A DNA stretch of 50,942 nt from contig JASFYO010000073.1 in assembly GCA_045047305.1 (NCBI GenBank), positions 1 through 50,942 on the forward strand, read 5' to 3'. A model generated the notes under the pieces. The model saw nothing but the letters and a program-made list of their open reading frames with translations. It did not search any database and was not told the DNA's origin. Shown here in pieces: positions 4,510 through 43,755 of this stretch. The DNA comes from Planctomycetota bacterium (GTDB lineage: Bacteria > Planctomycetota > UBA1135). The stretch's first letter is position 1. Each line of letters begins with the position of its first letter. Both the position numbers and the translations under genes were made by a program.

Positions 4510-5847
4510 TTACTTACGCCAGTACTTCACCCATTCGGCTTCAAAACCGGCAAGGTCTACAGTGTAAATTCGACGGATTGCAGCTTCGACTGCATTCACA
4601 TCCCCACGCGGTAAACGGCCCACCGCCTGCAAGAATTCTGGGAACTTCTTTTTGCCAAACTTGCTATAGCGCACGAAGTCAATAATGCTTGCTGCTTGTG
4701 CATAGTGATTGCTTGACTTCTTCTCTCCAGTCGCCGACTTCCCTTGGTCATTTAGAAGGCTTGGAATCACAAAGAACTCACGAAAAGGCGTAAATCGGTC
4801 ATTCCGAGCAGCATTGCGCGCATAACCTTTCCGCTCGTTTTTGCTGGTCGACATCAACTCCGCAACGCCTTCTTGAAACCAAGAGCCGCCCCCGCCCAAG
4901 CGCAGACGATTAGAAAATATCTGATGGGTGGCCTCGTGAACGTGCACTGGATCTACAGGTGAATCGTAATAGGTTGCATAGTAATCTCGCCAAGCATGAC
5001 CTTTACTGTTACGCGCGCGCGCCTTGCTAATACCGGCAATCCCTGCGTAGTAGTCGACGTACTCCTCGCGTGTTCTAAAAAGGAAAACTGGCATAAGTTT
5101 GCGACCTTTCACTTCCGGAAAGGGAAAAGTCTTTTGGATATCGGAATAGCACTCCTCCATCTTCTTAGCGAAGAGCTTGCCACTCGAGGAGTCGGTAAAA
5201 ATTATGTAGTGGTCGGTGCGCACAATCTTCAACTTCCCTGCGAGTTCCAGGGGGCGATCACGCTCCCATCGCACTAATGCCTCTTGCTCACTCCATTCGG
5301 CATTCTCACTCTCACCATAAAACTCTATGCCCGATTTAAGAAACTTCTCTATCGCCTTGCGCGTTTTCTTGTCCGGTGGCGGCGTGCAACCCAGACGAAA
5401 GGTGTAGCCGCGATCGGCGGTTAACCCAGCCAAGACAAACTGGGTCGAAGTGCGTTCCGTGTGATCGTATTCGCCCCAACTGGCGATTACCCCGAAAGGC
5501 ATAGTGCCAAAAGGGCCTGACACGGGATACTCCTCTTCGAAATGGAAATCGCCTTGCCCCTCACGCTCACGGCGATTGAATGCTACGTTCGCAGAAACGT
5601 CGAAGGGATCAAACATGCCCCAAGCCTGTCGCGGAATGAGCCACAGAGACATATCCAGCTGGAAATCACCCATATGGCCCTTCCAGTTGTGCAGGTTCTG
5701 GCTGCCGGAACCCGCATGATTTTCGGTTAGATTCACCGTCTCGGGGACTGAAATGCGCAGGGTGTGGGCTTCGAACTCCCAAACGCCCTTCTCGCCTTGG
5801 GATTGGACCGCAAATAAAATTGGCGCGGCAAGTAGCAGTGCAAACAT
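4510..5847 (-). CDS. Exported DUF1570-like zinc-metallopeptidase-fold protein
   Basis: Signal peptide; RTDHYIIFTD; HEATH zinc motif followed by WFQEGVAE; YAQAASIIDF. Confidence 0.75.
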   Translation of the reverse strand: MFALLLAAPILFAVQSQGEKGVWEFEAHTLRISVPETVNLTENHAGSGSQNLHNWKGHMGDFQLDMSLWLIPRQAWGMFDPFDVSANVAFNRREREGQGDFHFEEEYPVSGPFGTMPFGVIASWGEYDHTERTSTQFVLAGLTADRGYTFRLGCTPPPDKKTRKAIEKFLKSGIEFYGESENAEWSEQEALVRWERDRPLELAGKLKIVRTDHYIIFTDSSSGKLFAKKMEECYSDIQKTFPFPEVKGRKLMPVFLFRTREEYVDYYAGIAGISKARARNSKGHAWRDYYATYYDSPVDPVHVHEATHQIFSNRLRLGGGGSWFQEGVAELMSTSKNERKGYARNAARNDRFTPFREFFVIPSLLNDQGKSATGEKKSSNHYAQAASIIDFVRYSKFGKKKFPEFLQAVGRLPRGDVNAVEAAIRRIYTVDLAGFEAEWVKYWRK

Positions 5848-5909
5848 AAATCTATCCTACCCGCAGCGCAAGATACCGGGCCAGTGAAATAGCCCGGCGA
5901 GAAAACCGC

Positions 5910-7487
5910 CTATTCGTCTTCACTGACAGTGATGATGTCCTCCAAGGAATCCAGCTTACGGCGATTCTCTGGGTCGATATCACCCGCCAGAAACATGAGA
6001 CGCGAACCTTCTTCCTTGTCCCCAAAGCGACGCATAGCCTCGCCGTAAGCGTAGTAAAACTCACCAGTCATGGGCGAAATGGAAATAGCGGTCTTCCAGT
6101 GTTTCTCGGCCAGAGCCCACTGCTCGGCTTTATCTCCTTTGCCGCGCCGAGCTTGGCTCACCAATAGTTTGGCAAAGTGGTGATAGGCCAAGGCACTTGC
6201 CTCCCCGGTCTCAATCGCCTCGGTATACAAACGACGTGCACGAATAGGGCGGTCATAACGCTCGGCATTCTTCGCCGCCTTCTCCTTGCCATGCGAACTC
6301 GTGACCTTTAGCTCGGTCTCAATGTAGGCATACCATTCGCGTTCAAGTTCGAGCAACTGCTCATGGTCTTTAATTTTCATGAAGCGCATAAAGACTTCGA
6401 GAACCTCTTCCTGAGGCACGGTCTTTAAGTTATCGACTCCCATCGAATCCCGCTTTACCTTCTTGTCATTGGCAAGGCCTACATAGAACTTACGGAACTT
6501 TTTCTCGTACCGTTTATCGTTCATCAGAAAGTGCACGAAGGTCCAACCCCAGGTGTAATGCTGATACATGCGTTCGCTCAGCATTTTCTCCAATGACATC
6601 CATTCGTCTTTCGCGATGTCGGTCTGCACTTCTGTCAGGCGGCCTTCCAGAATAAGGCCGGAAGTGAGCTTCTTCTTTACCGGGTCCCACTCGCTTGCAC
6701 CGTAGTACTCGGCAAGAGCTTCACCCGGCCAGTGAGGGTAAGAGAATTCAACATTCACTAACTTCTGCAAATAATGGTTCGCCTCATGAAACATCACCTC
6801 GCGGGAGAGAGATGGATCAAGACGATCGTAATAAATGTCTAGCTCCAGAGGCTTCACAAAGCGGAAGTAGCCGAGCACACCCCGACGCGCACCACTCACT
6901 TGGTGAAAAAGTTCCTCATCGCTGTAAAAGCAAACTAGGAGCCTGGTGTCCTTGGGGTCGAGTGCATATCCCTTTGACGGCTTTACCTTCCATTCTTTGC
7001 AAAACGCGGCAAAGTAGGCTTCCATCTGAGCCGCATAACTATCAAACACATAGGGCGGAATGGTGTGCTCAAAATTGAAGTATTTAGTCTTCACCTTGTA
7101 GCGACTACGCCATTCCGAATGCGCATCGATGTCATCAATCATCGCACGACGGTCTGCAACACGTTTCTGCAGGGTAATCTCGCGCTTACGCGCAGAAACC
7201 CACTTACCTTCGAAAGGCACCAAGCCATCTTCCAATTTTTGCCGTTCTTCCTCATTTTTGGCTTCATAAGGGACTGCTTCCTTCCCGACCAAAAGCACAT
7301 CCTGGATTAAATCCATCGGCACGGTGACCTCACCGTGAGGATAGTGCGCAATAAATCCATCTTCCACTGCCTCAAGATTGAGACCATCAAAAATCTGGCC
7401 ATCCTTGAGCATAAGAATGTCTTGCTGGGCAACTGCTGCGGAAGTTGAAAACGTCAGCAGCAAGAGAGAACAAAGAAAGGTGTGCAT
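5910..7487 (-). CDS. Exported DUF1570-like zinc-metallopeptidase-fold protein with C-terminal TPR-like helices
   Basis: Start MHTFLCSLLLL (ATG 7487); LKDGQIFDG N-terminal module; FHEANHY..WPGEALAEYY; YTWGWTFVHFL; helical TPR-like tail. Confidence 0.75.
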   Translation of the reverse strand: MHTFLCSLLLLTFSTSAAVAQQDILMLKDGQIFDGLNLEAVEDGFIAHYPHGEVTVPMDLIQDVLLVGKEAVPYEAKNEEERQKLEDGLVPFEGKWVSARKREITLQKRVADRRAMIDDIDAHSEWRSRYKVKTKYFNFEHTIPPYVFDSYAAQMEAYFAAFCKEWKVKPSKGYALDPKDTRLLVCFYSDEELFHQVSGARRGVLGYFRFVKPLELDIYYDRLDPSLSREVMFHEANHYLQKLVNVEFSYPHWPGEALAEYYGASEWDPVKKKLTSGLILEGRLTEVQTDIAKDEWMSLEKMLSERMYQHYTWGWTFVHFLMNDKRYEKKFRKFYVGLANDKKVKRDSMGVDNLKTVPQEEVLEVFMRFMKIKDHEQLLELEREWYAYIETELKVTSSHGKEKAAKNAERYDRPIRARRLYTEAIETGEASALAYHHFAKLLVSQARRGKGDKAEQWALAEKHWKTAISISPMTGEFYYAYGEAMRRFGDKEEGSRLMFLAGDIDPENRRKLDSLEDIITVSEDE

Positions 7488-7491
7488 TTGC

Positions 7492-9150
7492 TTACTTAAT
7501 GGTGCGCAGGTAATCCGCATCGAGTTTATCCCAATCCTTTTGCGTCCAGTCGGAGAAGGTCCGTTGGTAAACCTCATTGGCAATCGATTCGGCGCGCTCC
7601 TTCCAAACATTTTGATTGTTCTTGAAAGCCTCATCCTCTTCTTCCTCGGTGGTAGGACCGTCATCCTCCATATCGTCCCCGGCATCACTCAAGGCCTCTT
7701 CCTCGTCCAGGATATCCTTCAGATGTCCCAGATATTCCTCTGCCAAGTTCTTCGTCAGTTTCGATTTTGCACCTTTCCCAACCATGAGATAACGCACAAA
7801 GGCCCCAAACTCACGCCAAATGGTGTCTTTGCCACGAAAGTCAGAACTGGTCATCTTGAACATCTCACTGGGCAAAGTAATCGTTTCATCCTTCAGTGCA
7901 TCGCGCAAACCAGTCTTTGCCCAATTGTCCGGCTCAAAAATCAGCTTGTTCCCTTTCACCTCGGCAGTGTGAAGCATGCTGTCCATGCCGTAACGGAACC
8001 AAGCCGGAATCCGAGAGTACAACTCGCGGTCTCGTTCATAGAACCAATAACGAAAGGAACGGTCATTGACTTGGCCCGAATAATAATCGCCCATCGAGCT
8101 ATTGTCTTTACAGGTGAGGATTTCAATATTGGTAAAGCTCCAACCGCTGCCACTCACAAACATGCCCATTTCTTCCGAGTTCTTACAAATTCGAATGATC
8201 GGTCGGCGCACATATTCGCCTTCTCCAACAAAAGGGAAATTCTCCTCCAGCCAAGCGAACATGAGATCGACTTGCTTTACCACCTGCTTGGTGTCCTTTT
8301 TCTTAACGTGCGAGAGAACTAAAAACCGGCCACTATCATCCGCAGTCCATTCTTCCGGAAGGTTTGCCAAAGCCTTGCGGTGCTGGTCTTGTTCAATCGA
8401 AATCCGTACTTCCCTACGCTCTTCTGGAGTATCCCCAGCATTAAACAACTCACGCAGGCTTTGCGAAGATGCGTCGCTTGCCTTCGTTCTTTCAATCACC
8501 TTGAAAGATCGGAAACGTGCGCTGAACTCTTTCTTCCATTTGTCATAGGCACCCTCCAGGCATTCAAACTGGACCGCGACATCGGCGTGGCCAAGGTGAT
8601 AAACCCAGGTGGTGATGCGTTTCGGGCCAAGCCGCGAGCTCTTCTCCACCTTAATCGAGAAAGCTGTCACCTTGACACCACGAATCTCTAAGCTTTCCTC
8701 ACTGTCCACATACCAACCACCATCACGGTAAGTTTTGCGCAAATACTCCTCGTAATCCTTATATGGGTTTTCCAGACGTAAAGTGGTGGAAATTGTTTTC
8801 CCCTTATCCTTGCCGCCGAGATCCAGATCAATGTCCGTCTTCATGCTTTCTCCAGTGAAAGCAATCATGGTCATCTCGGGCTTGTGGTTGTAAGTCCAAC
8901 CGAAAGTTTCGTCGGTATAGTGGTTCGATTTGTTTGATTGATAGCGCCCCACGATCCAACGCTCATTATTCTGAATCGGAATTTGATTCCACTTCTTTGG
9001 CGTGGTCATTTTGAAACCGAGTTTTTCATCCTCGTGCTGCGCATCATCGCGCGGCCCTATGGCAGTGGTTTCAACGGTCGTAGGCATCGACCCCAAAGTT
9101 GCGCCCGAGAAAACCAGGGCTAGTGGGAAGAAAATAAGGGGGTTGAACAT
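7492..9150 (-). CDS. Exported DUF1570-like paralogue lacking the HExxH motif
   Basis: Signal peptide from ATG 9150; GRFLVLSH, IPAWFRYGM and FVRYLM segments parallel the neighbouring paralogues, but no HExxH is present. Confidence 0.6.
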   Translation of the reverse strand: MFNPLIFFPLALVFSGATLGSMPTTVETTAIGPRDDAQHEDEKLGFKMTTPKKWNQIPIQNNERWIVGRYQSNKSNHYTDETFGWTYNHKPEMTMIAFTGESMKTDIDLDLGGKDKGKTISTTLRLENPYKDYEEYLRKTYRDGGWYVDSEESLEIRGVKVTAFSIKVEKSSRLGPKRITTWVYHLGHADVAVQFECLEGAYDKWKKEFSARFRSFKVIERTKASDASSQSLRELFNAGDTPEERREVRISIEQDQHRKALANLPEEWTADDSGRFLVLSHVKKKDTKQVVKQVDLMFAWLEENFPFVGEGEYVRRPIIRICKNSEEMGMFVSGSGWSFTNIEILTCKDNSSMGDYYSGQVNDRSFRYWFYERDRELYSRIPAWFRYGMDSMLHTAEVKGNKLIFEPDNWAKTGLRDALKDETITLPSEMFKMTSSDFRGKDTIWREFGAFVRYLMVGKGAKSKLTKNLAEEYLGHLKDILDEEEALSDAGDDMEDDGPTTEEEEDEAFKNNQNVWKERAESIANEVYQRTFSDWTQKDWDKLDADYLRTIK

Positions 9151-9327
9151 GATGGTTATTCTAATGGCTAAGGTAATCCTCTCCACCCTGTTGGGGCATT
9201 TCATTGGCAAAGTAACGCAAAAATTTGCCCAACGCTATGAAACCAGCCTTTTTTCGGTCAAAAAGCCTACTTTGAGGCCTTTTTACACCAAATCCTCTCC
9301 CATTTGGAACGAAACGCTACCTTTCCA

Positions 9328-10179
9328 TCAGCCTAAAAGGGAGAACAAGTCGTCAGGGGCGGGCACCTCTAACTCCAATCGCGCCGCCGTAAGAGGATGA
9401 TCGAGGCACAGTTTCCAGGCATGAAGCCCAAGACGCCGATCACGCTGCCCGTAGCGGACATCGCCGACCACGGGATACCCCGCCCAAGAAAGGTGCGCAC
9501 GAATTTGATGCTGACGTCCGGTCTCAATCTGCACATGCAATAAGGAACGGCCCTTGCATGATTTTTCAGTTGAGAAATGAGTCACTGCAGACTTGGCCTC
9601 AGGGTGTAGGCTGACATGAGTGCGGAAGCCTTTGGCATCCATGCGTAAAGCACGATCAATCGTGCCATGCGCAGGCTCAGGGCGTCCTTCCACCACCGCC
9701 AGATAAGTTTTCTCTGCGCTTCCCCACGCCGCCGAGACTGCATCCTTGATGTCGCGCGAGGTAGCAAACAACAGCACCCCCGATGTTTCACGGTCCAAAC
9801 GGTGTACAGGGTAGAGCTCAGCTCCCCCACGCAACTGGGTTAGTTGTTCACGCAATAGACCTAGGGCATGACGCTTCGGTTCCTTTGCAGAAGCCACCGA
9901 CAGCAAGCCAACGGGTTTATCGATTGCAATGAGGGCGCCGTCGTCATAAACAATTTCGAGCGTTCCTGCTTTTTTGCGCATGCCATGCCCCTTTGGCAAA
10001 ATCTCGACCACGTCCTCCGCCTTCAATCGAAATGCATTTTGACGCACCGCAACGCCATTAACTAAAACACATCCGCTCTGCAAACGCTGCTTGATGTTAT
10101 TGCGCGACCAGCCACCTAGCTGCTCAGCCAAAAGCTGCAGCAAACCGGTATCCTGCTTGACCTCAATTCGATTCGACAT
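9328..10179 (-). CDS. RluA/RluD-family RNA pseudouridine synthase with N-terminal S4-like domain
   Basis: IDKPVGL, HRLDRETSG catalytic motif, KTYLAVV, ETGRQHQIRAHL, PVVGDVRYG, LGLHA. Confidence 0.95.
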   Translation of the reverse strand: MSNRIEVKQDTGLLQLLAEQLGGWSRNNIKQRLQSGCVLVNGVAVRQNAFRLKAEDVVEILPKGHGMRKKAGTLEIVYDDGALIAIDKPVGLLSVASAKEPKRHALGLLREQLTQLRGGAELYPVHRLDRETSGVLLFATSRDIKDAVSAAWGSAEKTYLAVVEGRPEPAHGTIDRALRMDAKGFRTHVSLHPEAKSAVTHFSTEKSCKGRSLLHVQIETGRQHQIRAHLSWAGYPVVGDVRYGQRDRRLGLHAWKLCLDHPLTAARLELEVPAPDDLFSLLG

Positions 10180-10181: not shown

Positions 10182-11087
10182 CTATTCCTGTTCAGTTTGA
10201 GGGGCCTCAACGACCTTTGCTTGGGGATTAAGCACTTCAAGCCCCAATTCTTTACGGATTGCTTTCTGCAATTCCTTCGGCTTAAACCCACGCGGGCCCC
10301 GTTTACCGGCATAAGCAATTTTCCCATCCTTACCCACCAGGTACATACGATCCGGTTGCGCTTGGTAATTGCGATTCACCTGGTTATCGATGCCGTCGAC
10401 CACCGCCGGCAAACGCTTGAGAGAAAGACTCACCATGCACTTTCCGGCCACGGCAAAGCGCTCTTCAAAAGTGATTGGCTCCTCCACCAACGGTGCATTA
10501 CGCGCAGTGTTTGGCGAAGCGCCATCGAATGCGTGCGCTTCACTGATGTAAACCACTACGAATTGCACCTCCTTACCATATCGATCAAATAATTGATTTA
10601 GCCGACCGGCTGAATTGCGAAAGGGCGGTCAGGTGTACGAGCCAAAAATCAGAGCCACTGGTTTCTTGCCGATAAAGGAGGAGAGGCGAAGCGCTTGCGG
10701 ATGCGCCTGGCCCTTTGCGGCCTCCTTCTTTTCCACATCCACATCCTTAAGGATGAGCAAGCGCAATTCAAAATCCGGCGCGACTTCCCCCACCTTCGGA
10801 GCAAGCACCAAACGGTTACGGATTTTCCGGTCTTTGGGTCTCGGCTTCATGCGGTCGCCCGCCGCCTCGATATCGGCTTGAGTTAGGAAGCCATCTCCAT
10901 CAGTGTCAAGATTTGCGAAAGCATCAGCTCCACGTTTATGCTCCTTGGGCGAAATCTTGCCGTCGTGATTGGCATCGTATTTCTCCTTCAAGATTTCCCA
11001 CACCGGGGGCGGTGCCAAAGAAGAGGACACTGGAGGTTCTTCCTGCTGACACAGCAAGGTGAGCGTGAGTGTGGCGGCGCAAAGCAT
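10182..11087 (-). CDS. Probable selenoprotein: exported EF-hand + iodothyronine deiodinase-like (thioredoxin-fold) protein, Sec at in-frame UGA 10629-10631, ~301 aa
   Basis: Track ORFs 10629..11228 and 10182..10568 are in the same frame and joined by one TGA. Read-through gives KKPVALIFGSYT-U-PPFRNSAGRLNQLFDRYGKEVQFVVVYISEAH...VVDGIDNQVNRNYQAQPDRMYLVGKDGKIAYAGKRGPRGFKP, which matches the deiodinase GSxTUPPF / YIxEAH / PERLY signatures. EF-hand loops DANHDGKISPKE and DTDGDGFLTQAD. Confidence 0.88.
10596..10615 (-). promoter_or_regulatory. Putative bacterial SECIS hairpin
   Basis: mRNA reads UGA-CCGCCCUUUCGCA-AUU C AGCC GGUC GGCU A AAU. The stem has a GGUC apical loop starting 21 nt after the UGA; E. 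coli fdhF has GGUC 18 nt after its UGA. Confidence 0.7.
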
Positions 11088-11197
11088 GGGTGAAAACCCC
11101 AAGATAACACTTTGGGTGCTTAAAACCGCTAAGCCTAGCTCGGATAATGGATGTAGGCAGAGCTTCCACCGCAACATTTGGATAAACTTAGTGCGCC

Positions 11198-11467
11198 ATG
11201 GACATCCGCAACAAGACCCCGCGCCCACTCAAGATTTCGCTGCCTGGTGGCAAGGTTTTGCGCCTTGGACCACGCATGACCGGCCAGATTTCGCCTAAAG
11301 CTGCGGAACATGAGACGTTAAAGAAGCTGCTCGACGAAGGCGTAATTGAGATTCTCGGCGATGGCGGCACCAAGGGAGTTGGCGGCACGGTTACGGATTC
11401 TGGCAACGGGCCTGGCCAAGCTGGTCCAGCTGGAGGCGGCGCGATGCGGCGCAGCGGGGATCGCTAA
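11198..11467 (+). CDS. Small hypothetical protein (89 aa) with Gly-rich tail
   Basis: Protein-like sequence MDIRNKTPRPLKISLPGGKVLRLGP..LKKLLDEGVIEIL; fills the gap divergent from the selenoprotein gene. Confidence 0.65.
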   Translation: MDIRNKTPRPLKISLPGGKVLRLGPRMTGQISPKAAEHETLKKLLDEGVIEILGDGGTKGVGGTVTDSGNGPGQAGPAGGGAMRRSGDR

Positions 11468-30269: not shown

Positions 30270-30277
<8 letters not shown>

Positions 30278-31307
30278 ACCTAAAACCGATGTCGCATCCG
30301 CCCAGGCTTTCGCCGAGGCCTTTCAAAAGCTTCGCGAACAAATTGGCCGCGTGATCGTGGGCCAAGAGCAAGTGATCGAAGAGCTTTCCATTGCCCTTGC
30401 TGCTCGCGGGCACGCCATCTTGGTGGGCGTTCCTGGATTGGCAAAAACCCTGCTTATCAGCACTTTTTCGCGTGCTTTGGACCTAGATTTCCGCCGCATT
30501 CAGTTCACGCCTGACCTTATGCCGGCCGATATCACCGGGGCAGAAGTACTCCACGCCGACCCTGAAACCGGTGAACGCAGCTTCCGTTTCGTCAACGGCC
30601 CGGTGTTCTCCAACATCGTCCTCGCCGACGAAATCAACCGCACCCCGCCGAAGACTCAGGCTGCGCTGCTGGAAGCCATGCAGGAGCGCCAAGTTTCCTC
30701 CGCCGGAACCACCCGCCCTCTACCCGACCCGTTTTTCGTGCTCGCCACGCAAAACCCGATTGAGCAGGAAGGCACTTATCCCCTTCCCGAAGCCGCACTC
30801 GACCGCTTCCTCTTCCTAATTAAGGTCGATTACCCTTCCGCCGAGGAAGAAGCCGAAATCCTGCGCCGCACCACGGGCTCCCTCGAAAGTGAGGTCGAAA
30901 TCGTTCTCAATGCGGAGCAGTTAGTGCAAATGCAAGGCCTCGTGCGTGAGGTGCCGGTCTCTGATAGCGTGATTGATTACGCAGTACGGATTGCGCGTTC
31001 CTCGCGCCCATCGGATGAAGCACCGGCCTTTATCCGCCAATGGGTCACTTGGGGCGCTGGCCCACGCGCATCACAAAACATGATTTTGGCGGCCAAGGCG
31101 CGCGCGCTCATTCAGGGCCGCTTCCATGCATCGACAGAAGATGTCGACGCCGTGGCACCGTCGGTTTTGCGCCACAGGATTCTCACTAACTTTGCTGCGG
31201 AAGCCGAGAACGTCACCCCCGACGATGTCATCCAGCAGCTCATCCAGGAAACTCAGGCTCACCCGAGCGCTCTTGACGGGGACCGTGCAGCAGGCATCGG
31301 ATCCTAG
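30270..31307 (+). CDS. MoxR-family AAA+ ATPase
   Basis: GVPGLAKT, RIQFTPDLMPADITG, LADEINRTPPKTQAALLEAMQE, ATQNPIEQEGTYPLPEA.LDRF. Confidence 0.96.
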
Positions 31308-32187
31308 GCTACGTGCAAGGCTGCAACGCTTAGAGTTGCGCGCCCGCACTGCGGTGGAAGGCCTCCGCGGTGGACGTCATCAGTCCCCGATTAAGGGGTC
31401 GAGTACTACCTTTGCGCAACATCGTGAGTACGTGGCTGGCGATGACCTACGCCGTCTGGATTGGCGCTTGATGGCGCGGTCCGACCGCAACATTATTCGC
31501 GAGTACGAGGAAGAAACCGATTTGCGCTTGTGGATTGTGCTCGATGCTTCGGCATCCATGCGCTTCACTAGCGGCGAGTGGAGCAAGTTTGAATATGGCA
31601 CATGGTTGGCGGCCGCACTTGCCCGAGTTTCCTGTGATCAAAACGATCAGTTTGGTCTCATGCTCACGCGCGGCGAGAAATTGGAACGCATGTTGCCAGC
31701 TCGCGGTGGCGAGGCGCACTGGAAAACCTTATGCCATCGCTTGGCCGAGGCAGAACCAGAAGGTGCCGGTGACCCAGCTCTAGGTCTACAATTGGCTGCC
31801 AGTCAAATGGACCGACGTGGTCTAGTGGTGTGGATTAGTGACCTACTCGGGACTCCAGAAGCAGCATCGACGGCAGTGAACCTAATTCGACGCAAAGGCC
31901 ACGACATAATTGCTCTACGCACTTTAGATCATGCCGAGGTCGACTTCCCCTTCCTGCGTAATACCCGTTTTGAAGGTTTAGAAAGCGACGCCACCTTGCG
32001 CGCCGACCCCAATACGATTCGCGCAGCCTATCTAGAAGAGTTTGAAAAGCATGGTGCAGAGTTGCGTCGTGGTTTGCGCAGTGCGGGCTGTTCCTTCCGT
32101 CGCATGCCAACGGAAGAACCGCTGGAGGTTGGCCTGGTGGAATTCTTGGCGCAACGCAACGCACAAAAGTTAGGAGGGCGTCGATGA
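31285..32187 (+). CDS. DUF58 (vWA-like) protein
   Basis: GRHQSPIKG.S..FAQHREYVAGDDLRRLDW, IREYEEET, LDASASM, ISDL. Start is approximate (GTG 31285 or TTG 31273). Confidence 0.92.
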   Translation: MQQASDPRLRARLQRLELRARTAVEGLRGGRHQSPIKGSSTTFAQHREYVAGDDLRRLDWRLMARSDRNIIREYEEETDLRLWIVLDASASMRFTSGEWSKFEYGTWLAAALARVSCDQNDQFGLMLTRGEKLERMLPARGGEAHWKTLCHRLAEAEPEGAGDPALGLQLAASQMDRRGLVVWISDLLGTPEAASTAVNLIRRKGHDIIALRTLDHAEVDFPFLRNTRFEGLESDATLRADPNTIRAAYLEEFEKHGAELRRGLRSAGCSFRRMPTEEPLEVGLVEFLAQRNAQKLGGRR

Positions 32188-34355
32188 ACTTCGCAGCTCC
32201 AGCGGTACTGTGGGCCCTACCCCTGGTCTTGGTGCCCATCATCATTCACTTACTGCAGAAGCGTCGCTTCCGCCGGGTGGAGTTTAGTGCGATGGAGTTT
32301 TTGTTTAAAGCTGTGCGGCGCACTCGGCGCAGAGTTTTGCTCGAGGACATCTTGCTGCTCATCTTGCGCACCTTAGCGATTTTACTAATCATCCTTGCGC
32401 TTGCACGCCCCAACAGTGCAGACCTCCCGTTGGTGCTTGGTCGCGATGCCCGCGCGGAAGTCTTGATTCTGGATGCCTCTCTATCCATGAATCATCAAGG
32501 CGAAACTCAAAGCGCCTATGCAAATGCACTTTCGATCGCAGCAAAACGATTGCGCGACCTCGATCCGAAGATGGAAGATCGCGCTGCCGTCATTCGCGCT
32601 GGCCTGCGCGTGGAGCGTGTCGCTTCCGGCGAGCCAGATGAAGTGCGTAGTGTGCTGCAAGAACTAGAGCAAGCCGACCCAGCGCATGGTGACTTGGTCG
32701 GAGCCCTGCATGCTGCCGCTCGCACGGTGGAAAATTTGGGTCCGGATCCGTCGCGCATTATGGTGACGATTTTGACTGACCTACAGGCCAACACATGGAA
32801 TGAGGAAGCTGGCTTAAGCGCCCCGTTTGCGGCATTGGTTGCCCTTGGTTGTGAAGTCCAAATACTCAACTGTGGTGCGGTTGAGCGCGAGAACGTCGGC
32901 GTTACTTCCCTGAGTTTGTCTTCCTCGCGTTTAGTCCGGGGGGATTCGTGTGATGTCCTCGTCACCCTGCGCAACTTTGGCGAACACGAAGCCAAGGTCC
33001 AAGCAACCTTACTCATGGATGGCACCCCCATTGCCAGTAAGAGTTTCGTTCTTGGCGCACGCCAACCAGCGGATTGGAATGTTGCAGTGGCGCCGGTCGA
33101 AAGTGGCGCTCGTGCCTTAGAGGTGCGCTTAGAACACGATGCCCTAGTCGACGATGACACCCGCGCAGGCATCCTTGATGTCGGCGATGGCTATCAAGTG
33201 ATGATTGCCGGGGAGGCCTCGGCGCAACAAGATGCGCCCAATGTCTTCGACGGCATGTGGCGCTACCTTTCTCTAGGCGAATGGGCGCCGCTACGCCCAA
33301 CAGCACTGCCTCTGCCCTTACTCGATGAGGACACTCTCGCCGAGTACGACTTACTCATCCTTGCCGACCCAGGGCGCGTTTCGATCCGTGCCGCAACGGC
33401 GATTCAACAGTTTGTCCGCTCTGGCGGCGGCCTACTACTAGCGTTGGGGCCGAAAACCGGGCAGGAAGAGTTGCTTGAATTATTCCTGCAGTTACAGATG
33501 AATGGCATCAACATTGGCGCACCGATTCATGCTGAAAAAAACCCAGCTCGACTCGACATTGTCGATCCGGAAACGCCAGCATTGCGTTTCTTTAGTGATG
33601 CACGCTGGAAGCCGTTACTCACCGAAGTGCCGCATGCAATTTATCGGCCACTCAATATCGATCCGAATCTTGCGCAGGACTTGCACATCGGCCTACGCTT
33701 CTTGCAACAAGATGAAAACCTAGACACCGGTGCAGCTCTAGTCGACTGGAAGCTTGGAGAAGGCCATATTGCACTACTCTCGAGTGCTCCCCTGCCGCGC
33801 TGGAATCGCATGGAAGAAATCCCAGGCGGCACCTTGCCGCTGATTTACGATTTACTTTTCTCGCTGGCACCAAAGCCTGGATTCCCGGTTTCCTACCCAG
33901 TCGGCGCGGCCTTGCGTTTGCAGTTTGCGCACCCACCCACCGACACACAACTACGCGACCCCGCCGGTTTATTGCTGAACGGACTCGCTGGCCTGGAAAG
34001 TCTGGAGCACGGCCACACCCGCATTGACTTGCTGGAATCAGTTCCACGACCTGGTATTTGGCACCTCGGTGCCCGCCTTCTGCTCCCGGACGGAGAGGAA
34101 ATCGCCGTCGACCAGCCGCTTGCCGTGGTCGTGCCGGTAGAAGAAAGTGATTTACGCGCTGCTGATCCTGCAAGCCTGCGTAAATTTCTACCACCCTCCG
34201 TCGTTATTGGTAATTCCGATGACAACATCGTGCAACTCCAGGCCTTGGGCTCTCCCACACGCGATTTAACCCGCAGCCTACTTTTGCTGGTGTTGGCTTT
34301 TCTAGTGAGTGAAACCTTGTTCGCTTGGTTCCTCGACCGGAGACGAAACCTTTGA
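32184..34355 (+). CDS. BatA-domain / vWA membrane protein with Ig-like and GATase-like domains
   Basis: MNFAAPAVLWAL..VPIIIHLL..F.AMEFL..LLILR..LALARP; MIDAS LDASLSM / LTDLQ; C-terminal TM helix. Confidence 0.88.
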   Translation: MNFAAPAVLWALPLVLVPIIIHLLQKRRFRRVEFSAMEFLFKAVRRTRRRVLLEDILLLILRTLAILLIILALARPNSADLPLVLGRDARAEVLILDASLSMNHQGETQSAYANALSIAAKRLRDLDPKMEDRAAVIRAGLRVERVASGEPDEVRSVLQELEQADPAHGDLVGALHAAARTVENLGPDPSRIMVTILTDLQANTWNEEAGLSAPFAALVALGCEVQILNCGAVERENVGVTSLSLSSSRLVRGDSCDVLVTLRNFGEHEAKVQATLLMDGTPIASKSFVLGARQPADWNVAVAPVESGARALEVRLEHDALVDDDTRAGILDVGDGYQVMIAGEASAQQDAPNVFDGMWRYLSLGEWAPLRPTALPLPLLDEDTLAEYDLLILADPGRVSIRAATAIQQFVRSGGGLLLALGPKTGQEELLELFLQLQMNGINIGAPIHAEKNPARLDIVDPETPALRFFSDARWKPLLTEVPHAIYRPLNIDPNLAQDLHIGLRFLQQDENLDTGAALVDWKLGEGHIALLSSAPLPRWNRMEEIPGGTLPLIYDLLFSLAPKPGFPVSYPVGAALRLQFAHPPTDTQLRDPAGLLLNGLAGLESLEHGHTRIDLLESVPRPGIWHLGARLLLPDGEEIAVDQPLAVVVPVEESDLRAADPASLRKFLPPSVVIGNSDDNIVQLQALGSPTRDLTRSLLLLVLAFLVSETLFAWFLDRRRNL

Positions 34356-36589
34356 ACCACCTCGTTTTTTCGCACTTACCACCGGCCTGGGTTCTGGGAT
34401 TACTCATTGTTCCGATTGCAGTATTCATCGCGGCAATGGCCTACCGCCTGCGCAAACGCTCGCGGACTGCGCGGCGCTTTGCAATGGGATTGCGACTCAT
34501 GCTCTTTGCCACCGTTTTATTCTTAAGCTTCGGCCCTGCCCTACAGCATGACCGAGTGGAATCGGAAGCGGCCCCACTAGCCTTACTTTTGGATGATTCC
34601 GCTTCGATGCGAATGGCCGATCAGCCAGGCGCTCCTTCTCGCCTCACCGAGTTGCAAGCCTTGCTCGCTTCGCCATTACGCGAAGAATTGGAAAGTAAGT
34701 ATCAGCTGCAAGCTTGGCGCTTTGGTGAACGCCTTGCAGCCACCTCCACCCACGGTGACGAACTCACCGGCGCCGGCCAAGCATCTTCACTCGGCAATGC
34801 TTTGGAAGCCCTTCTGGCGGAATACCGCGGGCGCCGCATGCCAGATGTAGTTTTGTTTGGCGATGGACGCACCAATCTTGGTAGTGATCCACTGCAAGCA
34901 GCCGACCGCTTACGAGCCGAAGGCGTGAAGCTTCATATCGTGGCTTTTGGACAAGCAGAACAGGCGCCGGATCTCATCCTCGAACGTATTCAAAGCCCGG
35001 ACTTGGTTTTAGCCGGAGATGTAGGCCTATTTTCGCTTCGCTTGCGTGCAGGTGGCAGCCCTTTGCCAAAGCGCGCAGTTGTGCGTTTGCTCGATGAGTT
35101 GGGCAATGAGCTCGATCGAGCAGAAGTGCAAGACTTAGATGAGAACGGGGTCAACCTGGTACTTTCGGCCCTTCTGCAAACCCCTGGAGAACGACGTTTA
35201 ATTGCCGAAGTCCTGCCCGTTGCTGGCGAGACGGCCACCGATAACAACCGTTTAGAATTAAGCCTCACGGTGAAAGAAGTGAAAGTGCGGGTGCTGTACG
35301 TCGAGGGTAAGCCGCGTTGGGAGTATCGCTTCATTCGCGACCGCCTCATTCGGGCAGAACGCGATGTCGTGGTCAACCTCTGGCTTGCCGACGCCGACCG
35401 CTCCTTTCCGCAAGAGCACTCGCGAGCTACCCGGCCGTTATTGCGCCTACCAGTAGATACCGCCGCTTTGCTGGATAGCTTCGACCTCATCATTCTCGGC
35501 GATGTCGACCCCACGCGACTCACACCTGACCCACTTGATGGCCAGCGCTTCCTTAGTGCCCTTTCCGAGTTCGTGAAAAAGGGTGGCGGACTTCTGATGT
35601 TGGCCGGCCCGATGCACAATCCGCGCGCTTACGTCGGCTCTCCGATTGAAGCCCTACTTCCGATCATCATCGGCAAAGAACCGCTACCGCCCAAAATGCA
35701 GATCACGCCGATGCCGCCAGACATGCAGCGTCCGCACCCGGTAGTCCTGTTTTCGAGCGATCCGATTGAAAACCAAAACTTGTGGGCTACGTCGGCCAAG
35801 TTGGAGTGGTATCAGCCAGTGGAACGGCTTCGGCCTGGCGCCACCGCCTGGCTGGTCAATCCGGATTACTCGAATCAGTATGGGCCACACGTAATTGCGG
35901 CGAGTATTTTCGCTCCAGAAGGTTGGGTTGGATGGATTGGCACCGACGAGACTTGGCGCTGGAGGTTCCCAGGCGGTGAGCGTTACGTCGATCGCTTTTG
36001 GCGGTCCGCCTTACGTCATTTGGCAGCTACGCGATTGCGCGGAGACCATGGGCGCATTCGTCTGGATCTCGACCGTACCGAAGTCGAGCTTGGTGCCTTC
36101 CTACAAGTGGAAGTGCGCCTGCTCGACGACAGTTTTCAACCCGTGGTAGATGAAGAAGGCGTCGCGTTGTTCTTAGAAGGGGCTGGTCGCGCAGCCGATT
36201 TGCGTCCGGTTGCGGATCAACCAGGCATCTATCGCGGACGCCTTCGTGCCTCCACTCCAGGAGCTGCGCGCGTCTACCTCACCGCCGATGGCGACCCCGA
36301 CAGCGAAGCCGTCGCCAGTGCTCGCTTTCATGTCAACCTGCCTTCGCGTGAAATGGCCGACACCTCGCAAGATCGAGCGCTGCTGACAGCCCTGGCTGGA
36401 CGTACCGGCGGCATGCTAGTTGACGCGGCCTCCGCTGATTCTTTACTTGATACTTTGGATGGCCGCGAACGCGTCACGCGCATCCTCAACAGCTCACGCA
36501 AGCCACTAAACCCGTGGCCGTTCTTGACTTTGATTCTACTTTGCGCGGCGGCAGAGTGGATTCTCCGCAAACGCCTCAACCTCTCTTGA
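34352..36589 (+). CDS. Membrane protein with vWA and glutamine-amidotransferase-like domains
   Basis: LDDSASM, FGDGRTN, VLYVEGKPRWEYRF, FDLIILGDV, FVKKGGGLLMLAG, DETWRWR, EWILRKR. Start TTG 34352 overlaps the upstream stop. Confidence 0.85.
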   Translation: MNHLVFSHLPPAWVLGLLIVPIAVFIAAMAYRLRKRSRTARRFAMGLRLMLFATVLFLSFGPALQHDRVESEAAPLALLLDDSASMRMADQPGAPSRLTELQALLASPLREELESKYQLQAWRFGERLAATSTHGDELTGAGQASSLGNALEALLAEYRGRRMPDVVLFGDGRTNLGSDPLQAADRLRAEGVKLHIVAFGQAEQAPDLILERIQSPDLVLAGDVGLFSLRLRAGGSPLPKRAVVRLLDELGNELDRAEVQDLDENGVNLVLSALLQTPGERRLIAEVLPVAGETATDNNRLELSLTVKEVKVRVLYVEGKPRWEYRFIRDRLIRAERDVVVNLWLADADRSFPQEHSRATRPLLRLPVDTAALLDSFDLIILGDVDPTRLTPDPLDGQRFLSALSEFVKKGGGLLMLAGPMHNPRAYVGSPIEALLPIIIGKEPLPPKMQITPMPPDMQRPHPVVLFSSDPIENQNLWATSAKLEWYQPVERLRPGATAWLVNPDYSNQYGPHVIAASIFAPEGWVGWIGTDETWRWRFPGGERYVDRFWRSALRHLAATRLRGDHGRIRLDLDRTEVELGAFLQVEVRLLDDSFQPVVDEEGVALFLEGAGRAADLRPVADQPGIYRGRLRASTPGAARVYLTADGDPDSEAVASARFHVNLPSREMADTSQDRALLTALAGRTGGMLVDAASADSLLDTLDGRERVTRILNSSRKPLNPWPFLTLILLCAAAEWILRKRLNLS

Positions 36590-39500
36590 TTTCACTTCGC
36601 ATTGCTTGCCTTTGCCTGCTCGCCACCTTTGGTGCGCGCGCCGTGGCGCAACAAGAATTGCCAGCGGGGATTTCGTTGCCAGAGGACCGTTCCTTGGCGA
36701 CCAAGCTTTCGGATGCACAAGCCTACTTAGCCGATCAACGCTGGGAAGCTGCGGTCAGTTTGTTGCAAGAGGTGGCCGACGCCAACCCTTCCGCCCTCAT
36801 TGCCGACCGCGACTTCCTCTACGTTGGTGCTGTGCAACGAGCACAGTCTTTGCTCGCAAAACTTCCAGCTCCAGCGGCTTTGGTGCGTGAGCAAATGGTG
36901 CGCACTCGTGCGCAACTTGAATTAGGCGAGGCCATGAGCCCACCCGACATCAACTCGCTGGAACAAATCGCACAGCGTTATGCCGGTTCCGAAGTCGGCC
37001 ACCGCGCCAATGTCTTGCTACAAGACCTATGGTACGACCGAGGCTACCCGGAACTAGCATTAGCCCAAGGTGCCGCCCCTTTAAGCAAGGAGTGGCAAAA
37101 CATGCTTCCTCCGCCTCCGTTGGCCGATGCCCTGACTCCACCAGTGTTTCAAGATCTCGGCGACAGCGATTTGCCGCGTCTACGCCCGGGTGAGTTGAAA
37201 CCGGTATGGCGGTTTTCCTTCGATGACGACGCCCCCACCGCTGACCTTGGCCACCGCATGGCCTTTGGCGACGGACTCGGCTTTGCAACCAACGGACGCG
37301 AAGTCGTCGCTCTAGAACTCGGTAGCGGACAAACCCGCTGGCACTTCCGTGGACCTCCCGGCTGGGCTTCTCTCGGTAATACGCTTCTTAATGAAATCAC
37401 CGACGGAGCTTCGCGCCTCACTTTGTTAGCTCCAGTGCTGGCGGAAGGGGTACTCCTTGCTGTGGTGCAAGAACCGATTGGAATCGGCCGTTCGGACCGC
37501 TACAGCCGCATCCCGATTCGCAAAATGTTGCCCGCGCGCAGGCTTTATGCCTTCAACGCAGCTACCGGCGACATTCTGTGGAAACAAGACGTCAGCTGGA
37601 TGCACCCGCAAAACCGTCAGCCGGAGGAGCTCGCCGCTGGCCCACCAGCCGTTTCGGGCGGACGCGTTTACCTACCGGTTTATACTGCCGCTGGTACCGT
37701 GGATCTTTCCTTGCTGGCCTTGGACCTCCACACTGGCAAGCCCTTGTGGAAACGATTCCTAGTCAGCGGCACCATGGAAACTAACTTGTTCGGCAATGTA
37801 CTTTCCGAACTTGCGGTCCCTCCTCCTGTAGCCGATTTGGAACGGGTTTTTGTATGCACCCACTTCGGGGCAGTGTGTGCCGTCGATGCAGCAACCGGCA
37901 ATGCCTTATGGACCCGCACCTATCCCCGCACCACGGTGCACACACGGCAGAATGGCCAAATTGGAAGCCGTCCGCAGTATTTTCATAACAACCCGCCTTC
38001 CTACGATGGCAAGCGTTTAGTGGTGGCGCCAACCGATAGCTTCTTCGCTATGGCGTTAAATGCAGACAATGGACAGCGCTTAGCCCGTTGGGCTGCAGAA
38101 CCAAACAACAATCGCTATGGCACCTTGAGCAACTTGATCGGAATGGACCAAAAGTATGCGTGGTTCTCCGGCACGCATGTAGTGCGTTTACCCTTAGATG
38201 AGACTGTGACTTCGCGTCCGCGCACCAGTCCAGCGCTGTATGAATACGTCAGCAGTAACGCCAGTAATCTCAACGCGGGTGCAATCATCTACAAGGGTAT
38301 CTTGGCAATGAGCTCCAATGGTGTCGTCGACCTCGACCCGGATTCGCTCGCCATAAGAACCGATGCACTGACCTGGGAAGCGCTGGAAGGTCGCTTCATT
38401 GGCCCAGCCCAAGTGACTCATGGCTTGGTGCTATTGATGACCAGCAAGGGCATTATTGCTTTTGCTAGTCCTGGCGCTTTGCTCGACACTTTAGTTTCGC
38501 ACGACCTCAATCCCAAATTGCTTCGCGAACTATTGCCGCTTTTGGAAGCCGTTCATTATGAGGACGACCCAGGGCTCGGCCGACGCATTGCTCGTACCGC
38601 CAGTGAACTCGCCAAAAGTGATACTTTTACCGCCCAAGCTGAAGAACTTGAATTCCTTGCAGGCCGTAGCTTGCTACTAGTCGGTGAGACTCGCAATGGC
38701 CTGATTGAGCTGAGCTCTCTATTAGAAAGTCACAACGATCGTTTACGCTTGCATGCCGCAGGTTTAATTCTCGATGCCCAGCCGGAGGAAGATGCAACCT
38801 CCGAACGTCTCACCCAAGCGATTGAAGTCTTGGCCAAAGCGCAGCCGGACCGAGTGCTCACCCGCGGCAACCACATGGAACCATGGCAAGCAGCTTTGCT
38901 GCGTGCACAAGCGATGCAAAGCCTCGCGCAGCACGATGGAGAGGCGCAACGCCAGGCTTTGGTCGCAGTTCTGTTGCTGGAAAACCCAGGTAGCTTAGGT
39001 GTTGGGAATTTGGATTTGCATACTTGGGCGCGCGCGCTGCTCGATGCGCTCATCCTCAATCCAAAACTTGGCGCGGCCCATCAAGCTGCAGCCAGCGCTC
39101 ATTTAAAAGCAGAGCTCCCGAACCTGTCTTTTCTGCGCGCCTTTGCCAATACTGAAGCGGCACAAGACTGGATGGAAGCTCAGAGTCGTGTCAAAAGCTT
39201 AGATCCTTCCGCACGCCTAGAGCTTCTCGCTTGGATCTACCGCTTTGGTGCCGACGACCGCGATTGGCCCCTCTTGCCGCAAAAGCTCGAGCAAGTGAAT
39301 GAACTTCCAGCGCTGCCCACAACCTTAACCCCACAAGTCAGTGTCAAACTTGATGGCGCCTTGCCACTGCACATGATGTCGGTGGATGGATCCGCTTATG
39401 TCTTCCTGCAAGATGACAATCTTTGCCGGATTTTGCGCATCACCGAGAACGGTTCCCGCCTGCTGCACACCTTGCCATTCCTGCCAGGATCAAACAGCCT

Positions 39501-40578
39501 CCCAAACCTCGAGAAATTCTGTTTTGGCACCAAAACCGGAATGGCCTTGCTGTACAAGAATCGGTGGATTCACATCGATTACCAGGGCAACCGCAAGGAG
39601 CGTTTGCTCGAATTGCCTTTGATCAGCACCTCGCCGCCCAAACGCATCGGTGACTTCCTTGCGCTATTGCTGCATGGCCCAGGACGTCGGGTCGTGGTCA
39701 ACGTCCTTGATTTAGAAACGGGCGTGCCTTACCTCCAGCAAACCATCGAGGCGACCGCCGACCGCTACCTGCATCTATTGGTGAACCCGCACTACTTGCA
39801 TGTTCTGCAGGACCGTTCCTCCACCGTGTATCGCATAGACCTGCGGCGCGCGAGCCCAGTCACGACCTTTCAACTCCCCTTCGCACCACGCTGGGAAGAA
39901 CTACAAACGGTTGCCTCCTTCGGCGATGGCGTCGCGATTCCAACCGCGCGCACCTCTTCCGATGGCCTGATTCTCATCGTGCGACCAAACCGCCCGACTA
40001 GGAGCGTCTCGCTGGAAGGCGTCGACTTCAACACCTTCCGCTGCGAAGAAGGCATCGGTTGGTGGACACGTCCGCAACGCGTACTGGGCGCAAATCTAGG
40101 TCCACTCACTTTAAATTGGCTGCGCCCTGGCGAACGCCGGATTTGGCAACGCCGTTTCTTGGACCCTGCGGTTCGAGTGCCACAATTCTTAAATCGCCTG
40201 CGCAATCCATCCCTCGCGCATGGCAAGGCTTTCCTCTCCTTCCAACCAGCGGCTAGAGATCAAGTCGAGGTTTTATGCATGGAGATGGGTGCCTTGGAAA
40301 GCACCTGGAGTAGCATCGTGACGGACATTTCGTTTTCACGCATTCAAGAACCAACCCCACGTCCGCAACAGGGCGCCAGCGGCTGGGTGCTACTACTCCG
40401 CGAAGGCGATACAAGACGTGCAAACTCACGTCTCCATATACTCCTGTTTAACAATCAAGGCATTGTGCAAGACAGCCAAACCATCTCGAGTCACGCCCGA
40501 AGCCTGAGCGTAACTTTGTTGCCGGGTATGGTGCTATTGCGCAACGGCGATCTCCTCACTCTGCTTGGAACCAAATGA
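36586..40578 (+). CDS. Large exported PQQ-like beta-propeller repeat protein with TPR-like segments
   Basis: Repeats ALELGSGQTRW, AFNAATGDILWK, ALDLHTGKPLWK, AVDAATGNALWT. Start TTG 36586 overlaps the upstream stop. Confidence 0.82.
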   Translation: MISLRIACLCLLATFGARAVAQQELPAGISLPEDRSLATKLSDAQAYLADQRWEAAVSLLQEVADANPSALIADRDFLYVGAVQRAQSLLAKLPAPAALVREQMVRTRAQLELGEAMSPPDINSLEQIAQRYAGSEVGHRANVLLQDLWYDRGYPELALAQGAAPLSKEWQNMLPPPPLADALTPPVFQDLGDSDLPRLRPGELKPVWRFSFDDDAPTADLGHRMAFGDGLGFATNGREVVALELGSGQTRWHFRGPPGWASLGNTLLNEITDGASRLTLLAPVLAEGVLLAVVQEPIGIGRSDRYSRIPIRKMLPARRLYAFNAATGDILWKQDVSWMHPQNRQPEELAAGPPAVSGGRVYLPVYTAAGTVDLSLLALDLHTGKPLWKRFLVSGTMETNLFGNVLSELAVPPPVADLERVFVCTHFGAVCAVDAATGNALWTRTYPRTTVHTRQNGQIGSRPQYFHNNPPSYDGKRLVVAPTDSFFAMALNADNGQRLARWAAEPNNNRYGTLSNLIGMDQKYAWFSGTHVVRLPLDETVTSRPRTSPALYEYVSSNASNLNAGAIIYKGILAMSSNGVVDLDPDSLAIRTDALTWEALEGRFIGPAQVTHGLVLLMTSKGIIAFASPGALLDTLVSHDLNPKLLRELLPLLEAVHYEDDPGLGRRIARTASELAKSDTFTAQAEELEFLAGRSLLLVGETRNGLIELSSLLESHNDRLRLHAAGLILDAQPEEDATSERLTQAIEVLAKAQPDRVLTRGNHMEPWQAALLRAQAMQSLAQHDGEAQRQALVAVLLLENPGSLGVGNLDLHTWARALLDALILNPKLGAAHQAAASAHLKAELPNLSFLRAFANTEAAQDWMEAQSRVKSLDPSARLELLAWIYRFGADDRDWPLLPQKLEQVNELPALPTTLTPQVSVKLDGALPLHMMSVDGSAYVFLQDDNLCRILRITENGSRLLHTLPFLPGSNSLPNLEKFCFGTKTGMALLYKNRWIHIDYQGNRKERLLELPLISTSPPKRIGDFLALLLHGPGRRVVVNVLDLETGVPYLQQTIEATADRYLHLLVNPHYLHVLQDRSSTVYRIDLRRASPVTTFQLPFAPRWEELQTVASFGDGVAIPTARTSSDGLILIVRPNRPTRSVSLEGVDFNTFRCEEGIGWWTRPQRVLGANLGPLTLNWLRPGERRIWQRRFLDPAVRVPQFLNRLRNPSLAHGKAFLSFQPAARDQVEVLCMEMGALESTWSSIVTDISFSRIQEPTPRPQQGASGWVLLLREGDTRRANSRLHILLFNNQGIVQDSQTISSHARSLSVTLLPGMVLLRNGDLLTLLGTK

Positions 40579-41648
40579 TTCTCTGCTCCCTCCTAATACT
40601 ACTCCAGACTCCGGACCCATTAAGCGGTCTCTCCACCTCGGGCCTTGAGGCCGCAGAGCGTGGTTTGCAGTATCTGGCGGAGCAACAACAAGAGGACGGG
40701 TCCTGGACTGCCGACGTCGGTTATAAGTTAGAGGAAGGCTACCGAGTTTGGAATCACGATGCCGAGCACGTCGGGGTGACCGCTTTGGCAGGCATGGCAT
40801 TCTTGGCGGGAGGACACGTCCCCGGGCGCGGCAAGTATGGGGAGGTCGTGAACAAAACCGTGGACTACCTGCTCAAGCAAGTGCATCAGGATGGCTACAT
40901 CACCTCGAATGAGACGCGGATGTACTCGCATGCATTTTCCACTCTATTCTTAGCGGAAGTCTATGGCATGACTCAACGCAATGATTTACGCCCGGCCTTA
41001 CAGAAGGCAGTCGATTTGATTGTGGCAAGTCAGAACGAGCAGGGCGGCTGGCGCTATCAACCACACGTTGCAGATGCAGATATGTCGGTTGCAGCTTGCC
41101 AAGTCTTGGCATTACGCTCGGCGCGCAACATCGGCATTCAAGTCCCGATCTCCACCATTGATGCTGCGGTAAGTTATGTACGCAAAAGCGCAGTCAGGGA
41201 AGATGATCCAGACTGGAGCATCAATATCGGCGCCAAACCGGGCGAATTTCGTTATCAACCAGACCTGCAATCGCGCGCAACATTCCCACTCACCGCTGCC
41301 GGCATCACCATTTTGCACGGAGCAGGCGTTTACGCCGATGCCGATATCGAGAAAGGCATTAAGCGTTTAGAAAGCCAACTGGGCAGCTTCACCAACCGTT
41401 ACGGGGATCGTGTCGGCGGCCACTACTACTTCTACTATGGACATTACTACGCGGTGCAAGCCTTCCACATTGTAGGAGGAGAAAGTTATCGTAACTATCT
41501 ACGTGTGGTGCAACGAGAATTGCTCAAAATGCAACGCGCAGATGGTTCTTGGCCAAACAGTACTGGCCCGGGCACAAACTACGGCACCGCAACCGCCTGC
41601 CTCATCCTGCAAATCCCGAAGGAGTACCTACCCATCTTTACACGATGA
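40575..41648 (+). CDS. Exported prenyltransferase/squalene-cyclase-repeat (alpha/alpha barrel) protein
   Basis: QW-type repeats YLAEQQQEDGSW, SQNEQGGWRY, MQRADGSW; MYSHAFSTLFLAE; YFYYGHYYAVQA. Confidence 0.88.
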   Translation: MILCSLLILLQTPDPLSGLSTSGLEAAERGLQYLAEQQQEDGSWTADVGYKLEEGYRVWNHDAEHVGVTALAGMAFLAGGHVPGRGKYGEVVNKTVDYLLKQVHQDGYITSNETRMYSHAFSTLFLAEVYGMTQRNDLRPALQKAVDLIVASQNEQGGWRYQPHVADADMSVAACQVLALRSARNIGIQVPISTIDAAVSYVRKSAVREDDPDWSINIGAKPGEFRYQPDLQSRATFPLTAAGITILHGAGVYADADIEKGIKRLESQLGSFTNRYGDRVGGHYYFYYGHYYAVQAFHIVGGESYRNYLRVVQRELLKMQRADGSWPNSTGPGTNYGTATACLILQIPKEYLPIFTR

Positions 41649-43741: not shown

Positions 43742-43755
43742 TCTTAAGAGAAGAA

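Follow-up and report, generated by a model that had tools for sequence, protein, structure and literature searches.

Does a single in-frame TGA on the minus strand of a Planctomycetota contig end a gene, or does it encode selenocysteine (Sec) in a relative of the animal thyroid-hormone deiodinases, and what might such an enzyme do in a bacterium? The codon lies in a window of 50,942 nucleotides (the whole stretch of DNA analysed here), in which a sequence-only reading had proposed a UGA-recoded selenoprotein with a SECIS element, an EF-hand pair and a deiodinase-like domain. The Sec machinery of the host genome and the conservation of the codon support this proposal, and the gene is a real, well-supported hidden selenoprotein whose family and domain fusion are already known. 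This copy itself is not what makes the gene interesting; the substrate question is, together with how widely the family is spread in Planctomycetota.

One reading frame across the UGA

The full coding sequence occupies 10182..11087 (-), running from an ATG at 11087, a start that matches the N-termini of homologues, to a TAG at 10184-10182, and gives 301 residues with a single in-frame TGA. As the sequence-only reading had described, this TGA (10629..10631 (-), predicted Sec153) separates two ORFs of the same frame and sits at the catalytic position of FGSYT-x-PPF, where it aligns with the catalytic Cys/Sec of mouse Dio3 and of Dio2; exactly 20 stop-free codons then lead from PPF to VVVYISEAH. 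The forecast that gene callers would split the gene was also accurate, since a table-11 ORF caller reports two ORFs (10629-11228 and 10182-10568) for the 301-residue frame and 56 of 78 database homologues stop exactly at GSxT. Recognizing the full frame thus corrects a routine mis-annotation, in which the cut at UGA hides a selenoprotein family. Contigs from two sequencing runs each cover the stretch unbroken, in a comparison that stops short of the TGA codon. The nearest named relative is a protein from a Planctomycetota metagenome-assembled genome, at 64% identity.

Selenocysteine machinery and genetic code

The host genome (G000; 2.83 Mb, 88% complete) encodes SelA, SelB, tRNA-Sec (anticodon tca) and SelD, all above curated cut-offs, and its selD carries an in-frame TGA of its own. 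TGA terminates 336 of 1177 long ORFs, including enolase and rluA, and the only Trp tRNA reads cca; therefore a code in which TGA means Trp was rejected, the sole tca tRNA being tRNA-Sec. In the host's own family (f1), selA was found in 44 of 49 genomes; two f7 genomes tested gave no selA match.

G000 appears to be a small genome rich in probable selenoproteins. Besides SelD, the candidates are an FdhA-like protein, an Ogt-like protein (P-U-HRV), an AhpD-like CxxU protein and five TGA-containing redoxin matches; the FdhA-like and Ogt-like names follow from their motifs. The sites are C7:35883(-), C13:929(+), C55:5483(-) and C29:100678(-), with the AhpC/TSA cases on C44, C45, C3 (two) and C82; the genome holds 11 AhpC/TSA matches, of which five contain TGA. 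A genome search found no paralogue of the deiodinase-like gene in G000.

Conservation of the UGA in relatives

A family search matched the protein in 21 of 49 genomes, with 18 matches in the catalytic domain and three weak ones. An internal TGA is present in the catalytic-domain matches of all 18 genomes and is read at the Sec column in 17 of them (the split match of G045 is left out). Of the same 18, 16 have selA, and the two misses are 83% complete. The domain is widespread in Planctomycetota and nearly always carries TGA: among the matches listed in a search with the NF038285 model, 107 of 301 sampled phylum genomes reach E<=1e-10, and at the stricter E<=1e-30 a TGA lies within 110 of 114 matches. 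Relatives were expected to show TGA or Cys at this codon, and 30 fetched phylum loci indeed have 28 TGA and two TGC at the Sec column. The in-frame UGA thus aligns with the Cys of homologues, and its flanks are conserved. Matches without a stop occur in G166 and G118 (both 99% complete), neither of which has a selA match; G283 has the Cys form, yet selA is present.

Two single sequences stand out at this column. Database protein P0004 has Trp there (GSFTWGPF), probably the product of a gene call with TGA as Trp, and locus L055 (G209) has the Sec TGA followed five codons on by a TAG within the SECIS region and is probably a broken copy.

It is almost certain that this UGA encodes selenocysteine and that one protein results. 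There is hardly any probability that the locus is instead a pseudogene, two separate genes, a sequencing error or a case of TGA read as Trp: the raw stop and the weak hairpin of this copy (below) speak for such readings and nothing else does, while the same column is TGA across many genera with intact flanks, Cys homologues exist, and the tRNA and stop-codon evidence above argues against Trp.

The SECIS hairpin

A bacterial SECIS core with a 4-bp stem and a GGUC loop (loop at 10607-10604) was placed at 10600..10611 (-) by folding and conservation; in this copy it reads AGCC-GGUC-GGCU from 10611 to 10600, at -5.0 kcal/mol. Ten of 200 shuffles of the 20-nt hairpin piece were equally stable, longer windows were no better than shuffles, and the copy lacks one pair that is kept in 17 of 19 aligned rows. 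In G000 as a whole, 251 of 13,954 candidate read-through TGAs are followed by a hairpin of this kind with a GG loop. A rule-based genome-wide SECIS scan was too unspecific and missed the hairpins of selD and of the AhpD-like gene. GGUC loops are present in the FdhA-like and Ogt-like TGA genes of G000 too, and are absent from its selD and AhpD-like TGA genes. Because the hairpin is small, matched by shuffles and similar to those after many other TGAs, the SECIS call draws on conservation and not on this copy by itself.

All 19 aligned contexts have the same GGTC loop, whereas beyond the hairpin GGT accounts for just 33 of 202 downstream Gly codons. The consensus stem has 5 bp, and two of its pairs show double changes from C-G to U-A that alter the protein. 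A covariation analysis, proposed along with the hairpin, gave four cells with pairing-preserving double changes (matched by 3 of 500 shuffles) and an overall covariation score matched by 22 of 500 shuffles. When folding was compared with synonymous randomisation, TGA contexts had a mean z of -1.78 (n=55) versus -0.28 (n=9) for TGC contexts; the covariation and Sec-versus-Cys statistics overstate the effect, as kin are not independent. Cys-form homologues are largely without the hairpin. What stands of the proposed GGUC-loop SECIS is thus a hairpin conserved with compensatory pairs; in this copy alone it is weak.

Domain architecture and fold

Residues 1-13 (11049..11087 (-)) form a short hydrophobic N-terminus (Kyte-Doolittle 11-mer peak 2.1) without a basic n-region, likely a signal peptide. 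A hydrophobic start recurs in 50 of 56 homologous N-terminal halves, and the protein is likely exported. Two EF-hand loops follow, at residues 38-49 (10941..10976 (-), D-x-N-x-D-G...E) and 61-72 (10872..10907 (-), D-x-D-x-D-G...D), both canonical 12-residue loops with D/N at positions 1, 3 and 5, G at 6 and E/D at 12; they are also matched by Pfam, and model confidence is high over residues 31-70 (pLDDT 93-97). The fusion of two EF-hands to the catalytic domain is therefore as first read, and the pair likely binds Ca2+. The pTM of the AlphaFold model of the 301-residue protein (0.81; 19-row alignment, pLDDT 85.9) is high for two domains, which hints that the EF-hand pair docks on the catalytic domain. 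An identity of the EF-hands with lanmodulin or XopAW was rejected, as these matches were weak and far below cut-off. The fusion also exists in reverse order, with EF-hands after the deiodinase domain, in P0008, P0011, P0013, P0015, P0016, P0018, P0019 and P0029 (C-terminal halves).

The catalytic domain, of deiodinase-like thioredoxin/peroxiredoxin fold, spans residues of about 96-281 (10245..10802 (-)). It matches PF00837 (T4_deiodinase) at 88 bits against a cut-off of 27, and the model superposes on Dio2 with Z 22.7 (rmsd 2.4 over 175 aligned residues) and on Dio3 with Z 21.2. The next folds are the 1-Cys peroxiredoxin AhpE (Z 18.1) and then DsbE/ResA (about 17). Sequence comparison gives the same order, with E 1e-40 for deiodinases versus 7e-9 for the next family.

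Across 45 aligned domains (eight partial or duplicate loci were dropped), Sec/Cys153, Tyr180, Glu183, His185, Arg210, Pro245 and Arg247 are invariant, and residue 152 is always Thr or Ser. Tyr180, Glu183 and His185 belong to the YISEAH motif (10533..10550 (-)) of the deiodinase hydrogen-bond network, whose Ser, Thr, Tyr, Glu and first His in the animal enzymes are all present in this protein. Cys217 (10437..10439 (-)), Cys in 41 of 45 domains, is a candidate resolving cysteine. Where Dio2 has its relay His182 (His174 in DIO1), 43 of 45 domains carry Pro, which is Pro204 here. The loop Trp (Dio3 Trp207) is missing from all 18 rows of this clade, against 26 of 27 other rows that have it, and all 18 show Tyr or Phe in place of the proximal Cys. 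The Arg275 column is variable among the aligned domains. As judged from these alignments, the clade retains most of the deiodinase hydrogen-bond network, yet has no relay His, loop Trp or proximal Cys.

The peroxiredoxin motif is PxxxT/SxxC plus a catalytic Arg. In the present protein S-x-x-U is found, the upstream Pro is absent, and the invariant Arg247 is offset by about one column; Pro-Asp stands at what we take to be the column of the peroxiredoxin Arg. No PF00578 match for P0001 was among the five families listed.

Clades and AhpD-like fusions

In a quick-version tree of 70 domains, the protein falls in an EF-hand clade of 17 Sec and two Cys forms (SH-aLRT 96), the natural Cys forms being P0002 and P0003. 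A separate GN(F)TCGPF Cys clade (SH-aLRT 99) holds an NF038285 member and proteins named 'deiodinase family proteins' by NCBI. The NF038285 model spans the EF-hand region (positions 39-92) and the catalytic domain (175-340) of this protein; the whole-protein score is 178.5 bits, under the cut-off of 250.

When the best 120 of the 783 longer homologues, of the Cys form, were examined, 10 carried a fused CMD/AhpD-like domain. These fusions belong to the NF038285 sister clade and not to the clade of this protein; CFY is the end of eight of them, CFYCMGHC is read in a ninth, and the tenth is incomplete. A stand-alone AhpD-like homologue (L103:1188-2718) has a lipoprotein-like N-terminus and a TGA after CFY, so the fusions that end at CFY are probably CxxU. 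A TGA in the fusions themselves is deduced from where these proteins end, because a metagenome scan returned no AhpD-fused locus. In the fusions, Sec may thus sit in the AhpD-like partner domain instead of the deiodinase domain. EF-hand/deiodinase-like Cys proteins with a double AhpD-like region were seen in P0095, P0102, P0103, P0116, P0159, P0185, P0187, P0197 and P0168. Within the phylum sample, a protein-level search found the AhpD-like partner in two of 301 genomes. A DNA-level search in the family gave short GC-rich noise only, and a close partner of the fused type was not found in G000, which has only the distant CxxU AhpD-like gene.

Relation to known proteins

Bacterial deiodinase-like selenoproteins with SECIS elements were reported in 2005, with a redox role guessed (PMC1088965), were counted in GOS data (PMC2398784) and, in the accessible text of PMC13188914, are still listed as uncharacterised. 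The bacterial PF00837 selenoproteins of PMC1088965 and PMC13188914 resemble this protein, as far as the available sections describe them, in having Sec at the deiodinase column and a SECIS directly after the UGA. The table in PMC13188914 gives the family motif as UxxC, whereas this clade has S-x-T-U-P-P-F and no nearby Cys; the accessible part of that review does not mention the spread of the family in Planctomycetota ('planctomyc', 0 matches). A deiodinase-like/EF-hand fusion appears among GOS metagenome selenoproteins in Fig. 2B of a 2021 paper, which notes an extra conserved Cys (PMC9402790). The two-domain fusion is the same, compared here through the available text and legend, and membership in one clade is not implied. 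The novelty first attached to an EF-hand deiodinase selenoprotein was therefore overstated, with the fusion in print in the accessible pages of PMC9402790 and the two regions modelled by NF038285. A literature search taking in few subscription journals turned up neither a biochemical study nor a substrate for any deiodinase-like protein of bacteria, and no publication connecting the family with Planctomycetota.

NF038285 (deiodinase_rel) likewise covers the EF-hand region and the catalytic domain, but its members form the separate GN(F)TCGPF branch, keep the loop Trp and are sometimes fused to AhpD. Animal Dio1-3 (PDB 4tr3, 9h48) share the fold with its deiodinase insertion, the Sec position and the Ser/Thr/Tyr/Glu/His network. 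In contrast to them, this protein has EF-hands and a short signal-like N-terminus rather than a membrane anchor, Pro for the relay His, neither loop Trp nor proximal Cys, and a distal Cys at +64 rather than at +69 to +76. AhpE and the AhpC-AhpD pair are alike in the Prx-type fold, the S/T-x-x-C/U site and the AhpD-like partner fused in sister proteins; unlike AhpE, this protein lacks the upstream Pro of PxxxTxxC and carries the deiodinase insertion.

Possible functions

The best explanation, to which we assign a probability of roughly 0.45, is that the protein is an exported peroxiredoxin-like selenol reductase of small oxidants acting outside the cytoplasm. In such a scheme, SelB would bind the GGUC hairpin and insert Sec153, and after export Ca2+ would fill the EF-hands, probably stabilizing the folded protein rather than switching it. 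The Sec153 selenolate would attack an electrophilic O or halogen atom, supplied by a peroxide, a hypohalous acid or a haloamine; as in deiodinases, the residues Thr152, Glu183, His185 and Tyr180 would hold the substrate in place or give a proton to the leaving group. Cys217 could then resolve the oxidised Sec as a selenenylsulfide, and a DsbD-fed periplasmic reductant would restore the enzyme, a part that the fused AhpD-like domain may take in the sister clade. All of these catalytic steps we infer; the frame, motifs, machinery, conserved hairpin and fold come from sequence and comparison.

AhpD serves to reduce the peroxiredoxin AhpC. The redox reading is favoured because AhpE is the next fold after Dio2 and Dio3, because S-x-x-U and Arg247 are kept while residues of the deiodinase substrate site are changed, and because some Cys-form homologues bear a fused AhpD/CMD-like domain and DsbD is present in G000. 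Against it, the AhpD fusions appear to be confined to the sister clade with no close partner found in G000, the closest structures and sequences are clearly deiodinases, Pro-Asp occupies the peroxiredoxin Arg column, and the genome already has 11 AhpC/TSA matches. Of the two roles first suggested, periplasmic dehalogenase or redoxin, the redoxin has somewhat better support than the dehalogenase.

It is somewhat unlikely that the protein is a selenium-dependent reductive dehalogenase that, like the animal deiodinases, removes I or Br from halogenated aromatics outside the cytoplasm, with iodo- or bromotyrosines, bromophenols or hydroxylated PBDEs as candidate substrates. Dio2 and Dio3 are its closest relatives in sequence and fold, the deiodinase-specific Tyr, Glu and His are invariant, and the Thr/Ser before Sec, present in 45 of 45 domains, corresponds to a hydroxyl reported as essential in DIO1, where T125A is dead and H174A is active (PMC9141512, accessible text). 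The missing relay His is thus not fatal, and Pro245 matches the cleft-opening Pro that Dio1 has where Dio2/3 have a shielding Phe (PMC11592359, in the part available); residue losses of this kind therefore leave deiodinase chemistry possible. Fish deiodinases are also reported to debrominate PBDEs (PMC7144113, as far as its available text goes). The changed relay His, loop Trp and proximal Cys columns and the variable Arg275 column weigh against dehalogenation, as do the 20 loci examined, in which no recurring halogen-metabolism neighbours were found, and a broad, multi-copy spread that better fits a general function. The fullest form of the dehalogenase idea makes the protein an overlooked, exported, corrinoid- and flavin-free aryl-halide reductive dehalogenase, a bacterial counterpart of the thyroid-hormone deiodinases acting on natural marine organo-I/Br compounds, tuned by Ca2+ through its docked EF-hands and occurring in about a third of sampled Planctomycetota genomes, often in several copies; taken as a whole, it is unlikely. 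A TlpA/ResA-like monothiol (selenol) reductase of disulfides or sulfenic acids on exported proteins is unlikely too. The best sequence and Foldseek matches after the deiodinases are exported TlpA/ResA/DsbE thioredoxins, the invariant Pro245 lies at or beside the cis-Pro position (3kcm alignment), and likely export and DsbD would suit such a role, but the protein has no CxxC or UxxC, and TlpA/ResA-type enzymes have nothing like the large deiodinase insertion beside the site and the invariant residues that it carries.

If the protein is a selenol reductase of the peroxidase type, it would be one more envelope antioxidant; if a dehalogenase, it would represent a new bacterial dehalogenase class with a bearing on the marine halogen cycle. 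With a small soluble member and the natural Cys forms of its clade, the role of the deiodinase fold before thyroid hormones becomes directly testable.

Genomic neighbourhood

An RluA-family pseudouridine synthase gene (9328..10179 (-), by family match) starts at 10179, 2 nt past the TAG stop, as originally noted. A functional link to rluA found no support, as the adjacency occurs only in two same-genus loci (G011, G014) of the 20 examined. The other neighbours vary by locus and include aconitase, urocanase, GST, FG-GAP proteins and kinases; the survey scanned 106 of 142 picked ORFs, with the target halves and a few others left out. A promoter and terminator scan gave no signal above shuffle level.

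Several neighbours were recorded in passing. In one case only, a Cys-form EF-hand deiodinase-like gene is directly followed by the gene for a membrane-anchored multiheme cytochrome c with TPRs (L097:3360-6344 (-)), a possible electron donor. In two genomes of one genus, the Sec gene has a GST gene tightly coupled to its downstream side (L093:6300-7028, L094:6079-6807). Downstream of rluA in the window, 4510-9210 (-) holds three large ORFs (445, 592 and 572 aa) with no Pfam match; the 445-aa ORF weakly matches an HExxH-protease model, and G014 has an equally long ORF at that place. Further along the window, 30270-45399 (+) carries a MoxR AAA+/DUF58/BatA-vWA/PQQ-propeller/prenyltransferase-repeat operon, presumably a common planctomycete arrangement.
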